NCBI GenBank assembly: GCA_934246625.1
Contig: CAKQHZ010000001.1
Span: 480,001-512,000 of the forward strand
DNA from: an uncultured Alphaproteobacteria bacterium
Lineage (GTDB): Bacteria > Pseudomonadota > Alphaproteobacteria > Rs-D84 > CACZYB01
Direction: 5' to 3'
DNA: 32,000 bases
Of this stretch, positions 11,669 through 18,578 are shown piece after piece. Position 1 is the first letter of the stretch, and every line of letters starts with the position of its first letter. The notes beneath the pieces are model-generated. The model had not been told where the DNA came from, made no database searches, and saw only the letters and a program-made list of their open reading frames with translations. Made by a program: the position numbers and the translations under genes.

Positions 11669-11697
11669 TTGATAATATTTCCAAAAAAGGGTATATT
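11669..11697 (+). promoter_or_regulatory. Candidate sigma70-type promoter of the N-ATPase operon (TTGATA-17 nt-TATATT)
   Basis: TTGATA at 11669-11674, an exact 17-nt spacer, and TATATT at 11692-11697. The predicted start near 11704 favours the 11731 ATG for atpD. Promoter-like hexamers arise easily in AT-rich DNA. Confidence 0.35.
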
Positions 11698-11730
11698 TAT
11701 TTTATGAATTTTTATAAGAGGAAAGAGAGT

Positions 11731-13188
11731 ATGTCTGAAAAAAAATCAAATATAGGTATTGTTAAGGCTGTTGAAGGTAGTGTGGTTGTTGTTTATTTTG
11801 AAAAGAAACTTCCACCTATTTATACAAAACTTGTTTGCAATTTGGATAATGAAAAGCAAATTGTTGTGGAGGTGGAGGACCATATTGATACTCATCATAT
11901 ACGTGGTGTTGCAATTACTTCTACACAGGGGCTTTCTCGTGGTGATGAAATGATTGATACTGATGGACCTTTGACTGTGCCAGTTGGAAAGGGTGTTCTT
12001 GGTCGTATGATAAATGTGATGGGGCAACCTATTGATAATCAAGGAGAGTTAAATGATATTGCTTCTTGGCGAGGAATACATAATAAACCTATTCCATTGA
12101 TGGACAGAAGTGTAAAGTCAGAAATTTTTAAAACTGGGATAAAGGCGATTGACTTGCTTACACCTTTGGAACGTGGTGGAAAGACAGGTCTTTTTGGTGG
12201 TGCAGGTTGTGGTAAAACAGTTCTTATTACCGAAATGATTAACAATATGTTTGGAAGATATGATGGTGTTTCACTTTTTTGTGGTGTTGGTGAGCGAAGT
12301 CGTGAAGGTGAAGAACTTTATAGTGAAATGAAAGATGCTGGTGTTTTGGATAAAACAACTATGATTTTTGGTCAAATGAATGAACCATCAGGTGTAAGAT
12401 TTAGAGTGGCTCAAGCAGCACTAACTATTGCAGAATATTTTCGTGATGATTTGAAGCAAGATGTCCTTTTGATGATAGATAATATTTTCAGATTTATTCA
12501 GGCTGGGTCAGAAGTGGCTGGACTTATGGGAAGAATACCATCACGTGTTGGGTATCAATCTTCTTTGGGTCAAGATTTAGCAGCGTTGGAGGAAAGAATT
12601 GCCTCAACTCCGTCAGCGTCTATTACTTCTATACAAGCAGTATATGTGCCAGCAGATGATTTTACAGACCCGTCCGCAGCGGAAACTTTTTCTCATTTAT
12701 CTGCAACGGTTGTGTTGTCTCGAAAAATGGCATCTCAAGGATTGTATCCTGCACTTGATCCATTGGCATCAAGTTCAAAAATGTTGTCTGCAGATGTTGT
12801 TGGTCAACGTCATTATAATGTTGCAAAAAATGTTAAAATGGTGATGGCTCAATATGAAGAATTAAAAGATATTATTGCAATGCTTGGTTATGATGAACTT
12901 TCAGATGAAGACCAAGCAACAGTTATTAAAGCAAGACAATTAGAAAGATTTTTAACTCAACCTTTTGCAACAACAAAACACTTTACTGGATTAGAAGGAA
13001 AGTTAGTTGATTTGGAACAAACTTTGGAAGGTTGTGAAAGAATCTTAAGTGGTGAATTTTTACACCTTAGCCCAAATGCCTTTTATATGATTGGTGATAT
13101 TAGTGAGGTTAAATTGGATATGAATAAAACCGAAGAAAATAAGGTTAAAAGTGAAGAAAAAAAGATAGAAGAAAACCAAGAGGACTAA
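11731..13188 (+). CDS. atpD: N-type (F-like) ATPase beta subunit
   Basis: P-loop [15 protein letters not shown], then [23 protein letters not shown] and a DELSDED-like YDELSDEDQ, all classical F1-beta motifs. Start set at the ATG (11731) preceded by AGGAAAGAGAG; the track start is 11704. It is the first gene of the operon, which is the N-ATPase signature order. Confidence 0.9.
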
Positions 13189-13191
13189 GCT

Positions 13192-13572
13192 GTGAAACTT
13201 AAAATTATTGCACCGTTGGAAATGTATGAAGTAGATGATGTTGATGTTGTCTATGCCGAAGGTATGGAAGGCTATTTTACAATACTTCCTTTGCATGCGG
13301 ACTATACAACTTCTTTGGAAACATCGGTGTTTAGATATAAAAAAGGTGGAAAAGAATTTATTTTTGCAGTTGATGGTGGTGTTCTTGTAAAAATGGGTGA
13401 TGAAGTTCGTATTGCAATAAGGCATATTATAAAGGGCGATAGTCTTTTGGATTTGAAAAAACAAATGCAAAAAGAGTTTTTTGAAATTGATGATAATGAA
13501 AGAAAAACACGAACTGCTCTTGCTTCATTAGAGGGAAATATTGCAAAACTTTTGTTGGAATTAAGTGAGTAG
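13192..13572 (+). CDS. atpC: N-type ATPase epsilon subunit
   Basis: GTG start 3 nt after the atpD stop, with GAGGA upstream. About 126 aa. The beta-sandwich region (IIAPLE...VVYAEGMEGYFTILPLHADY) and C-terminal helices fit the F1-epsilon layout. Its position directly after beta is as in N-atp operons. Confidence 0.8.
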   Translation: MKLKIIAPLEMYEVDDVDVVYAEGMEGYFTILPLHADYTTSLETSVFRYKKGGKEFIFAVDGGVLVKMGDEVRIAIRHIIKGDSLLDLKKQMQKEFFEIDDNERKTRTALASLEGNIAKLLLELSE

Positions 13573-16133: not shown

Positions 16134-16144
16134 GGGAATATGAA

Positions 16145-17659
16145 ATGCTTACAGAAGTTATTAAAGATACTTTGAATGATTTGAATGCCGTTTCAAAAGA
16201 AACAAAGGCAAGTGTTATTTCAGAAGAAATTGGTGAAGTTATTGAAATTGTCGGTAATGTTGTAAGGGCAACTGGACTTTCTTCTGTAAAAATGGACGAG
16301 CTTGTAAAAATAAAGGATTCTATGGGTATTGTTATCAACCTTAATGAAGATAGTGTTGGTATAGTTCTTCTTGATAATGCACAAAATATAGAAGCAGGTG
16401 AAAAGGTTAAACGCACTGGAAGAATTGCTGATGTGCCAGTTGGTAAAGAATTGCTTGGTAGGGTTGTTGACCCTCTTGGTAATCCATTAGATGGTGGAAA
16501 TAAAATTATTACAAAGGACAGATATAATATTGAACGTGAAGCGCATCAAATTATGGAAAGACGCGAAGTTTCAGTTCCTTTGCAAACTGGACTTAAGGCA
16601 GTTGATGCGATTATCCCAATAGGTCGTGGACAACGAGAACTTATCCTTGGGGACAGACAAACAGGTAAAACAGCATTGGCGGTTGATACTATATTGGCAC
16701 AAAAAAATACAGGTGTGATTTGTGTTTATTGTGCTATTGGAAGTAGGGCTGATAGTGTCGCAAAAGTTATTGATGTTTTGAAGCAAAATGATTGTATGAA
16801 AAATACTATTGTTGTTGTTGCAAGTGGTGAAAGTTCTCCTGGGCTTTTGTATATTGCACCGTATGCTGCAACTTCTATGGCAGAATATTTTATGGAACGT
16901 GAGGGAAAAGATGTTCTTATTATCTATGATAATTTGACTTTCCATGCACAGGCATATAGACAGCTTTCTTTGTTCCTTCGTAGGGCTCCTGGTAGAGAGG
17001 CTTATCCAGGTGATATTTTCTATGTTCATTCCAGATTGTTGGAACGTTCAACTCGATTGAGAGAAGAATTTGGCGGTGGTTCTTTGACTGCATTGCCAAT
17101 ATGTGAAACTTTGGCTGAAAATATTTCTGCATATATTCCAACAAACCTTATATCCATTACTGATGGACAAATATTTTTAACAAATACTTTGTTCCAAAAG
17201 GGTATTATTCCAGCAATCAATATAGGTATTTCGGTTTCTCGTGTGGGGTCAAAGGCACAACTTCCTGCTTATAAAGCAGTGGCTGGAGATATGAAAATCT
17301 CATATTCTCAATTTGAGGAGTTAGAGGCGTTTTCAAAATTTGGAACACAGCTTGATGAAGATACAAGAAAAACTTTGCGACGTGGTGAAAGAATTAGAGA
17401 AATTTTAAAACAACCTCAATACAAACCTCTTCGTGCATCAGAACAAATTGTGGTGATTTATGCAACAAATATTGGTGTGTTTGATGATGTGGATTTGGAT
17501 AAACTTGCATTGGTGCAAGATGAACTTATTAAACGTGCCAATATAGAAATTAAAAATGTTTTAGATGATATTGATAATGGTTCAAAACTTCATGACAGCT
17601 TTAAAGAAAAAATTAAAAAATTGGCTGAAGATGTGGCAAAAAAATATATAGAGGAATAA
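16145..17659 (+). CDS. atpA: N-type ATPase alpha subunit
   Basis: P-loop GDRQTGKTALAVDTIL, with LLRRAPGREAYPGDIFYVHSRLLER and LPICETLAENISAYIPTNLISITDGQIFL, all classical F1-alpha motifs. Confidence 0.9.
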   Translation: MLTEVIKDTLNDLNAVSKETKASVISEEIGEVIEIVGNVVRATGLSSVKMDELVKIKDSMGIVINLNEDSVGIVLLDNAQNIEAGEKVKRTGRIADVPVGKELLGRVVDPLGNPLDGGNKIITKDRYNIEREAHQIMERREVSVPLQTGLKAVDAIIPIGRGQRELILGDRQTGKTALAVDTILAQKNTGVICVYCAIGSRADSVAKVIDVLKQNDCMKNTIVVVASGESSPGLLYIAPYAATSMAEYFMEREGKDVLIIYDNLTFHAQAYRQLSLFLRRAPGREAYPGDIFYVHSRLLERSTRLREEFGGGSLTALPICETLAENISAYIPTNLISITDGQIFLTNTLFQKGIIPAINIGISVSRVGSKAQLPAYKAVAGDMKISYSQFEELEAFSKFGTQLDEDTRKTLRRGERIREILKQPQYKPLRASEQIVVIYATNIGVFDDVDLDKLALVQDELIKRANIEIKNVLDDIDNGSKLHDSFKEKIKKLAEDVAKKYIEE

Positions 17660-17660
17660 A

Positions 17661-18578
17661 ATGCAAACTCTTGAAGGACTTAAACGCAGAATTAAAACGA
17701 CTACTTCTCTTAAGGATATTGTAAGTAGTATGAAAACTTTGTCTGCGGTAAGTGTGGGACAATATGAAAAGTCAACAAAGGCATTGGAAAATTATGTCGA
17801 TGTCATTGAACAAGGTTTGCAAGTTGTTTTGAAGGATATTACTTTCCCTAATGTAAAAGAAAAGCCAATTCAAAATCAAAAGGTAATTGCAATTTTGATT
17901 GGTTCGGACCAAGGATTGGTTGGTAAGTTTAATAAGGTTATTTCTGATTATGCCTTTAGATATTTTAGGGATAATAATATTGATAAAAAAGATATAACTC
18001 TTATTGTTGCAGGACGAAGTTTGGCACCAAAGGTTTTAAGTGAAGGTTGGAATATTGATACTTTGTTTTCTATGCCAAGTTCTGTGAAAATGATGGTTGC
18101 AGTTGCAAAAAAGATTATTTTGCGATTAAAGGATATCGCTTTTAAAGATGATAAAGATGCTTTATTAAATTTTGCAAAAAATAACCTTAAAGTTTTGGTT
18201 TTCTTTAATAAAAAAATTGATGCAGTAAGTTTTGGGCAAAATATGTATCAGCTTTTGCCTGTGGATATAAATTATTTGAAAACAGTGAAATTAAGAAAGT
18301 GGAATACTAAGCAAATTCCAATGTATAATGCAAATAGTGCAAAGTTGTTTTCATCATTTTTAAGACAATTATTGTTTGTGAATATTTATCGAATTATTTC
18401 ACAAAGTTTGTCTGCGGAACATTTTACTCGTATGATAACAATGCAAAATGCTGAAAAAAATATTGATGAACATTTGGAAGAAATGAATCTTGAATATCAA
18501 CAAAGACGTCAAACAGAAATTACAAATGAACTTTTAGATGTTGTAATTGGTGCAGAAGTTTTAAAATCCAAAAAGTAA
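17661..18578 (+). CDS. atpG: N-type ATPase gamma subunit
   Basis: Starts 1 nt after the atpA stop. The N-terminal helix LKRRIKTTTSLKDIVSSMKTLSAVS and the C-terminal helix RQTEITNELLDVVIGAEVL match the gamma coiled-coil termini. It is the last gene of the order. Confidence 0.85.
   Translation: MQTLEGLKRRIKTTTSLKDIVSSMKTLSAVSVGQYEKSTKALENYVDVIEQGLQVVLKDITFPNVKEKPIQNQKVIAILIGSDQGLVGKFNKVISDYAFRYFRDNNIDKKDITLIVAGRSLAPKVLSEGWNIDTLFSMPSSVKMMVAVAKKIILRLKDIAFKDDKDALLNFAKNNLKVLVFFNKKIDAVSFGQNMYQLLPVDINYLKTVKLRKWNTKQIPMYNANSAKLFSSFLRQLLFVNIYRIISQSLSAEHFTRMITMQNAEKNIDEHLEEMNLEYQQRRQTEITNELLDVVIGAEVLKSKK

Follow-up and report, generated by a model that had tools for sequence, protein, structure and literature searches.

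The usual picture of N-type ATPases is that of mobile, accessory enzymes, present as a second ATPase in microbes with large genomes and, often, exposure to salt. Most of them carry a glutamate in both helices of the c subunit together with the Na+ motif ESTxxY (PMC2881411). We analysed a 32,000-nucleotide stretch of DNA, here called the window, from an uncultured alphaproteobacterium (contig CAKQHZ010000001.1, positions 480,001 to 512,000 of the forward strand). Nine genes on the plus strand at window positions 11731-18578 encode, according to Pfam and NCBIfam, the subunits beta, epsilon, AtpQ, AtpR, a, c, a long b, alpha and gamma of a rotary ATPase. In our judgement, with a probability of roughly 0.8, these genes form a complete and functional N-type (N1No) operon which is divergent in sequence, vertically inherited and native to small-genome gut alphaproteobacteria. 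Its identity as a native N-type operon, taken by itself, we regard as very likely.

The operon resembles the classic N-ATPases of Synechococcus PCC 7002 and Methanosarcina, and the Na+-dependent enzyme of Aphanothece halophytica, in its gene order atpDCQRBEFAG, in AtpQ and in an AtpR with two membrane arginines. A delta gene is likewise missing, b is long and ends in a delta-like region, and the two glutamates of the c subunit are accompanied by ESTxxY. The operon differs from them in its divergent subunits, which score below the cut-offs of the NCBIfam “alternate F1F0” models, in an AtpR that lacks the usual YF..LW.TV signature, and in an alpha subunit that favours the N-type model by just 70 bits. 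It also occupies one chromosomal site in a small-genome gut lineage, whereas the classic enzymes are spread patchily among large-genome marine or halotolerant organisms. Among solved structures, the best match to the window beta is PDB 6q45 (544 bits), which we take to be the Na+ F-ATP synthase of Fusobacterium nucleatum. This organism is anaerobic and host-associated, and its enzyme has a two-carboxylate c11 ring with a Glu/Glu-Ser-Thr-Tyr Na+ site. The Fusobacterium enzyme is nevertheless a canonical F-type synthase with a separate delta and no AtpR, and the window beta is about 55% identical to five solved F-type betas. The Bacteroides-type operon, atpDC-Q-BEFHAG, likewise belongs to gut anaerobes and begins with beta and epsilon followed by an AtpQ-like gene. 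This F-ATPase operon has a separate delta gene. It is without AtpR (PMC4154653), in contrast to the window, where AtpR and a b-delta fusion are both found.

Two further N-type enzymes are relevant. That of Burkholderia pseudomallei, which forms a c17 ring, also comes from a host-associated proteobacterium and is encoded beside secretion or virulence genes, and its two-carboxylate c subunit shares the Gly-to-Ala changes in the helix-1 packing motif (PMC5376962). The ligand motif is E-S-T-x-x-Y in the window but E-T-M-x-x-Y in B. pseudomallei, which moreover has a normal F-type synthase and respiration. The genus T78 of the Chloroflexota offers a precedent for an N-type enzyme as the only rotary ATPase of an anaerobe, although it belongs to another phylum and its enzyme is predicted to be H+-coupled (PMC11738941).

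The features that we used to define an N-ATPase are those of Dibrova, Galperin and Mulkidjanian 2010 (PMC2881411). A first-pass annotation, made from the sequence alone, had already proposed an N-ATPase at this locus, and that assignment is upheld by the gene order, AtpQ, AtpR, the b-delta fusion, the two-glutamate c subunit with ESTxxY and the beta tree. The intergenic gaps, in operon order, are 3, 8, -8, -4, 38, 25, 11 and 1 nucleotides. The order atpDCQRBEFAG is identical in every fetched locus with a full-length operon and recurs in more than 60 of the fetched loci. No separate delta gene (atpH) lies in the operon, and the 11-nucleotide gap between b and alpha holds no open reading frame (ORF). 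The nine-gene order, the tight or overlapping junctions and the absent delta gene had all been described in the first-pass annotation and are borne out by the ORF calls and the Pfam and NCBIfam matches. A canonical F1Fo locus would have its own delta gene and run atpIBEFHAGDC, or be split into atpHAGDC and atpIBEFF', and neither arrangement is found here. All nine ORFs are intact, and the operon must be real because chance cannot yield nine intact homologous genes in such an order.

The beta gene starts at 11731, giving a protein of 485 residues, and this start is used by gene callers on identical public contigs. An alternative ATG lies upstream at 11704, but that at 11731 has the better Shine-Dalgarno-like sequence. 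In an exact protein look-up, the 494-residue beta that would start at 11704 matched no record, whereas the 485-residue beta and the alpha are both on record. The spacer between virB8 and atpD (11568-11730, plus strand) contains a GAGG-type ribosome-binding sequence before ATG 11731 and a promoter-like TTGATA-17-TATATT at 11669-11697. The operon had earlier been given a start at 11669, a position that belongs to this promoter-like match upstream of atpD and is no coding start. The match itself is a mere consensus match in AT-rich DNA and is no evidence of function. A promoter and terminator scan against shuffled sequence revealed no enrichment, with 41 promoter consensus matches found and 36 expected.

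On the “alternate F1F0” models of NCBIfam, each subunit obtains its best or nearly its best score. The N-type catalytic beta (atpD, 11731-13188, 485 residues) reaches 721 bits with TIGR03305 (cut-off 752) against 621 bits with the F-type atpD model, and carries the Walker motif and DELSDED. Beta was placed in a neighbour-joining tree with 100 bootstraps, in which the F side consisted of five solved F-type betas and ten diverse representatives. All N-operon betas split from the F-type at 99/100, and the gut clade (the window and loci L001-L010 and L013, the latter from 11 other species-level genomes) joined three other alphaproteobacterial metagenome-assembled genomes (MAGs; L011, L012 and L014) at 100/100. 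The ten full-length representatives served only as distant outgroups; the search that supplied them otherwise yielded fusions and fragments for the most part, apparently because most F and N betas merge when clustered at 50% identity. The window beta is 61-64% identical to N-type references and 54-56% to F-type ones. Clustering of beta with canonical F-type clades had been named at the outset as the result that would speak against an N-ATPase, and beta instead groups with operon-verified N-type sequences, away from the F-type.

The same preference is found in the other head and stalk subunits. Epsilon (atpC, 13192-13572, 126 residues, GTG start) scores 60 bits with PF02823, and 90.7 bits with TIGR03166 (cut-off 100.1) against 37 bits with TIGR01216. 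Gamma, the central stalk (atpG, 17661-18578, 305 residues), scores 236.5 bits with TIGR03323 (cut-off 282) against 114 bits with the canonical gamma model. Alpha (atpA, 16145-17659, 504 residues) has the Walker A sequence GDRQTGKT and scores 705 bits with TIGR03324 (cut-off 750.5) against 636 bits with TIGR00962. Overall, the N-type models outscore their canonical counterparts by a wide margin for gamma, b, c, a and epsilon.

The two small ORFs at 13581-14232 had been proposed to be AtpQ and AtpR, and both identities hold, AtpQ by scores above the cut-offs and AtpR by less direct means. AtpQ, formerly “gene 1”, is a small membrane protein of 114 residues (atpQ, 13581-13925) with 56.6 bits on PF09527 (cut-off 26.6) and 77.6 bits on TIGR02230 (cut-off 46.7), although AtpQ is not exclusive to N-ATPases (PMC2881411). 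The 104-residue product of the next gene (atpR, 13918-14232) is a divergent membrane protein with three hydrophobic segments, the second of which contains Arg54 and the third Arg86. We compared a profile of the 12 gut-clade ORFs with one of 38 ORFs at the same position in operons of Smithella, cyanobacteria and gammaproteobacteria, 36 of which match PF12966. The hhalign probability was 91.8% (E 7.2e-7) over 87 columns, with both arginines in register. Taken singly, 9 of the 12 gut-clade AtpRs match PF12966, the best with an E-value of 3e-6. The related AtpI family (PF03899) is matched weakly by 11 of the 12, and the window protein scores similarly on the two families. The 104-residue ORF is thus a divergent AtpR, given its position, the profile-profile match and both membrane arginines. 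The long b subunit of the peripheral stalk (atpF, 15342-16133, 263 residues) has a C-terminal half resembling delta (OSCP). Its PF00430 domain covers residues 7-136 and its PF00213 OSCP domain residues 121-243 (36.6 bits, cut-off 22.3), and the whole scores 157 bits on TIGR03321 (cut-off 225).

The remaining membrane subunits carry the residues expected to handle ions. Subunit a, the stator and ion channel (atpB, 14229-14996, 255 residues), scores 140 bits with PF00119 and 194 bits with TIGR03306 (cut-off 302), and its stator Arg182 lies in LAIRLYGNIMS, an arginine motif kept in all fetched operons. Subunit c of the rotor ring (atpE, 15035-15316, 93 residues) scores 111 bits with TIGR03322 (cut-off 131) against 43 bits with the canonical c model. 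It has Glu31 in helix 1 and Glu64-Ser65-Thr66-Ala-Ile-Tyr69, the ESTxxY motif, in helix 2. These positions were set against the c sequences of I. tartaricus and E. coli, and they agree with the ESTxxY motif in PMC2881411. The pattern E...ES(T/C)xxY is present in 11 of the 11 gut-clade c subunits recovered, the L009 sequence ending before the c gene. Cys replaces the Thr ligand in the clade members L006 and L008 and also in L012, and the Smithella operons have lost two c-subunit ligands. The helix-1 motif of the window c subunit is G-x-A-x-S-x-A-x-G instead of GxGxGxG.

We next consider how the operon came to lie where it does. Homologues of VirB8, VirB9 and VirB10 are encoded upstream on the minus strand (7222-11567), with a VirB11-like ATPase gene at 5886-6851, so that the type IV secretion system (T4SS) noticed in the first-pass annotation is indeed found beside the operon. 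Downstream follow DUF192, rbfA, gapR, pyk, topA and yebC. In each of the 12 gut-clade loci virB8-10 adjoins the operon. Nine of these loci reach far enough to include its other side, where DUF192-rbfA comes next, and the flanking proteins of the 12 loci are 43-92% identical. The GC content of the operon is 32.7%, compared with 31.9% and 30.8% in its flanks. Beta is 83-100% identical within the gut clade, 65-77% identical to that of MAGs labelled “Rickettsiales/Alphaproteobacteria bacterium”, and about 62-65% identical to that of the classic N-ATPase hosts. TopA shows a parallel gradient, from 79-100% through 60-73% to about 54-55% for Rhodospirillales-like genera. Comparison of the window with a co-specific strain gave 117 synonymous and 19 non-synonymous changes across the nine genes, giving a ratio of non-synonymous to synonymous rates (dN/dS) of 0.04. 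Against other species dN/dS is 0.17-0.18, and it is below 0.25 for each gene, atpQ and atpR included, which shows purifying selection on all nine. No transposase, integrase or tRNA was found at the operon borders, and no tRNA or Rfam family across the window, which therefore shows no integration landmarks.

N-ATPase operons move laterally and can be plasmid-borne (PMC2881411), and this one adjoins T4SS genes, so a recently acquired, dispensable passenger operon had to be considered. Against this stand the match in GC content between operon and flanks, the identical site in 12 gut-clade loci, the parallel divergence of beta and TopA, the dN/dS of 0.04 and the clean borders, and we find a passenger origin hardly credible. 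The fixed site, GC content, parallel identities and dN/dS rule out a recent acquisition within the gut clade. On the same evidence, and on the intact functional residues, the operon is, as far as its sequence can tell, native to the gut clade, old and functional, in line with the earlier suggestion that it was native and not a recent arrival. Since its subunits are N-type and not of the alphaproteobacterial F-type, an ancient lateral transfer into an ancestor of the wider alphaproteobacterial group is likely.

Several points nevertheless weigh against a functional N-type operon as described above. All subunits that have an “alternate F1F0” model score below its curated NCBIfam cut-off. The window AtpR reaches 17.2 bits on PF12966, short of the gathering score of 26. 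In a distance tree of alpha rooted on the beta paralogue, only 8-9 of 100 replicates recover the N-operon alphas as monophyletic, and the gut clade has three F-type alphas as its neighbours at 76/100. The Burkholderia N-ATPase was predicted to use Na+ and was measured to use H+ (PMC5376962). Finally, the direction of the enzyme, pump or synthase, is wholly inferred, and the non-respiring state of the host is an unconfirmed inference.

The first three of these points bear on the possibility that the locus encodes a canonical F-type synthase outside the N-type family, merely rearranged, fast-evolving and Bacteroides-like. The NCBI name “F0F1 ATP synthase”, the sub-threshold “alternate” scores, the ambiguous alpha tree and the similar gene order in Bacteroides fragilis reported by Koumandou and Kossida (PMC4154653) would all agree with it. 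The NCBIfam cut-offs, however, are annotation thresholds and no biological definitions. The alpha tree, a distance tree with three F-type alphas, was probably distorted by its very distant root and narrow F-type sample. By raw identity, the F-type alphas stand equally far (50-55%) from all N groups, and the window alpha is slightly nearer to the N groups (54-59%) than to F (52.6%). The score on TIGR03324 minus that on TIGR00962 is +70 bits for the window, +69 for L007 and +56 to +95 for L011, L012 and L014, on a scale where F-type alphas give -175 to -200 bits and classic N-type alphas +141 to +180. By this calibrated difference, alpha falls on the N-type side and is strongly diverged. The earlier expectation that alpha would group with the N-type is therefore supported by the curated profiles, while the distance tree leaves it unresolved. 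With AtpR present, delta fused to b, beta joining the N-type at 99/100, gamma, b, c, a and epsilon N-type by their models and the alpha difference on the N side, a rearranged F-type synthase is very improbable.

With an N-type enzyme preferred, the question becomes which ion it moves. The complete two-carboxylate, Na+-type ligand set of the c subunit leads us to predict Na+ export. Schulz et al. 2013 reportedly found that the F-type ring of Fusobacterium nucleatum, which has the same two-carboxylate set, binds Na+, and this would count against coupling to H+. The alternative is an N-type ATPase coupled to H+ that would serve cytoplasmic pH homeostasis against gut organic acids, in a habitat rich in fermentation acids. 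The sole biochemically tested N-type c ring, that of Burkholderia with E30/E61-T62-M63-x-x-Y66, is H+-specific despite the Na+ prediction (PMC5376962), which makes ion specificity unsafe to read from sequence. About half of the N-ATPases are predicted to be H+-coupled by ProAD (PMC11738941), and the Cys at the Thr ligand in two clade members and L012 points the same way. On the other hand, the window c subunit has the full E/E-S-T-x-x-Y set, whereas the Burkholderia ring is without the Ser and has Met at the Thr position (PMC5376962). We therefore regard H+ coupling as unlikely, if far from negligible, and Na+ as the more probable coupling ion on the basis of the c-subunit ligands.

The direction of the enzyme depends on how its host lives. 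Identical proteins occur on gut-metagenome contigs of up to 648 kb, Hadza human samples included, and species-level relatives, whose betas are 83-89% identical, are MAGs from rumen, water-deer rectum, bank vole and other sources. The MAGs of L001 and L005 are 1.06 and 1.12 Mb in size, with about 32% GC, approximately 93-94% completeness and 0-0.7% contamination (PMC7511399 supplement). These sizes, at about 93% completeness, agree with the reduced, host-associated genome presumed earlier. Pyruvate kinase (pyk) is encoded at window positions 20096-21547, and a pyruvate:ferredoxin oxidoreductase (PFOR) of 1184 residues is encoded about 5 kb past the right-hand end of the window (15278-18864 in L086-L088). 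Together, the two genes indicate anaerobic, fermentative pyruvate metabolism. The reduced gut alphaproteobacteria placed in the GTDB order Rs-D84 are reported as purely fermentative, with neither respiratory chains nor a tricarboxylic acid cycle, and just some of their genomes are said to encode an “F0F1 ATP synthase” and a membrane pyrophosphatase (PMC12306168). The habitat, genome size and GC content found here, and the RodA, PBP2 and MreC genes of the extended region, fit Rs-D84 and make membership in that order plausible. The host thus appears to live by fermentation.

We favour, by a small degree, an ATP-driven pump, since ATP-driven ion export would be the most economical role in a cell that is fermentative and without respiration. 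In such a pump, the alpha3-beta3 head would hydrolyse fermentative ATP and the gamma-epsilon stalk would turn the c ring against the a subunit with its Arg182. Each c subunit would carry one Na+ on Glu64, Ser65, Thr66, Tyr69 and Glu31 and release it outside, with the b-delta fusion acting as the stator stalk. AtpQ and AtpR probably aid c-ring assembly or regulation, as Dibrova et al. proposed (PMC2881411), and the two membrane arginines of AtpR could pair with c-ring glutamates. The pump would provide a sodium-motive force and membrane potential for transport and ion homeostasis in a fermenting cell.

The same enzyme could instead be a Na+-driven ATP synthase, fed by a primary Na+ pump such as a membrane pyrophosphatase, Rnf or a Na+-translocating decarboxylase. 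The c subunit has the complete Na+ ligand set that this would require, the nearby PFOR could supply reduced ferredoxin to Rnf, and an “F0F1 ATP synthase” co-occurs with a pyrophosphate-energised pump in Rs-D84 genomes (PMC12306168). Gly-to-Ala changes in the helix-1 motif have been linked to larger rings and higher ion/ATP ratios (PMC5376962). The altered motif of the window could thus mean a larger ring, and synthesis stays a live rival because such a ring would make it feasible at low driving force. Nevertheless, no primary Na+ pump was found in about 52 kb (the window and 10 kb on each side, out of a genome of about 1.1 Mb), N-ATPases are generally seen as pumps, and deletion of the operon in M. 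acetivorans left ATP synthesis unaffected (PMC2881411). We consider a synthase improbable compared with a pump.

Whether this pump would be the only rotary ATPase of its host is a separate matter. In the same 52 kb we found no second set of atp genes and no V/A-type, Rnf, pyrophosphatase or respiratory genes, the extensions holding envelope, cell-shape and PFOR genes. Nor was a second beta, alpha or gamma found within the 88 fetched loci, the rest of each genome lying outside this search. N-ATPases generally accompany an F- or A-type enzyme and have been called “always the second” (PMC2881411, PMC11738941), a rule which speaks against a sole N-ATPase here. The ProAD account of 2025, however, reports a single, H+-type N-ATPase in 18 of 20 genomes of the Chloroflexota genus T78, and mentions no alphaproteobacterial or Na+-type case (PMC11738941). 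The first-pass annotation had called a sole N-ATPase unusual, and in light of T78 it is less unprecedented than was assumed. A case for sole status can be made because two ATP-driven pumps would bring no benefit to a cell without respiration, the genome is tiny, and the operon is universally retained and strongly constrained. We tentatively suggest, at somewhat less than even odds, that these gut alphaproteobacteria, if non-respiring, have no rotary ATPase besides the N-type enzyme, the ancestral F-type having been lost and replaced by a laterally acquired Na+-coupled N-ATPase. On this view the enzyme would now belong to the core genes and would either energise the membrane with fermentative ATP or use a Na+ gradient to make ATP.

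The surroundings of the operon hold further features. The T4SS has an unusual layout, with virB8, virB9, virB10 and an ORF of 119 residues on the minus strand and the VirB11-like ATPase gene on the plus strand. VirB9 carries a SPOR (peptidoglycan-binding) domain at its C-terminus, and the left edge cuts through a TrbC/VirB2-like pilin gene at window positions 1-315 (minus strand). In 12 of 12 gut-clade genomes, virB8 and atpD diverge from one short spacer (136-163 bp in the window), and the two may or may not be co-regulated. Also on the left, a PAS-GGDEF diguanylate cyclase gene (1067-2023, plus strand) indicates that this genome of about 1.1 Mb has kept cyclic di-GMP signalling. Five conserved ORFs on the minus strand, of 262, 281, 293, 240 and 301 residues (2025-3712, 4870-5751 and 30017-31628), are without significant Pfam or NCBIfam match, and the left-hand three (262, 281 and 293 residues) are 47-85% identical across the closer gut-clade species.

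To the right, a four-gene cluster on the plus strand (22957-26348) begins with a MotA/ExbB-like gene (ZorA1 model, 4e-14) and ends with a MotB/OmpA-like gene (ZorB3 model, 2e-26). The two ORFs between them, of 120 and 255 residues, have no family match. No ZorC- or ZorD-like genes were seen at this cluster, which may encode an ion-driven unit of the stator type and not a Zorya defence system. In L012, a distant relative, MotA-like and MotB-like homologues lie just downstream of atpG (16981-18960). Between pyk and the MotA-like gene, an ORF of 357 residues (21758-22831, plus strand) in DNA of about 28% GC has no match in Pfam, NCBIfam or PADLOC. It is shared by the window, L082 and L086-L088 and is a strain-variable insertion, since it is absent from the otherwise near-identical strain L081.

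In conclusion, the N-ATPase family is known, and what sets this operon apart from its described members is its sequence divergence, its strict vertical inheritance at one locus, its tiny-genome gut host and the fact that annotation thresholds fail to see it. Both NCBI and JGI name the betas of this clade (P0006, P0030, P0045 and others) plainly “F0F1/F-type ATP synthase subunit beta”, because their scores fall short of the “alternate F1F0” cut-offs. The curated thresholds thus miss the whole clade, and surveys based on labels or KEGG orthologues count its N-type enzymes as canonical ATP synthases. In these gut alphaproteobacteria of humans and herbivores, the N-type operon is a conserved, vertically inherited part of the core of a tiny genome. 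If it proves to be the sole rotary ATPase, what has been reported as “F0F1 ATP synthase” from Rs-D84 and similar reduced gut lineages would be N-type, and the rule that N-ATPases are “always the second” would have its first exception in the proteobacteria and its first of the Na+ type. It would also mean that an N-type enzyme can fully replace the F-type in a lineage related to the class of the mitochondrial ancestor, and would explain in concrete terms how the membrane of a reduced gut symbiont without respiration is energised.

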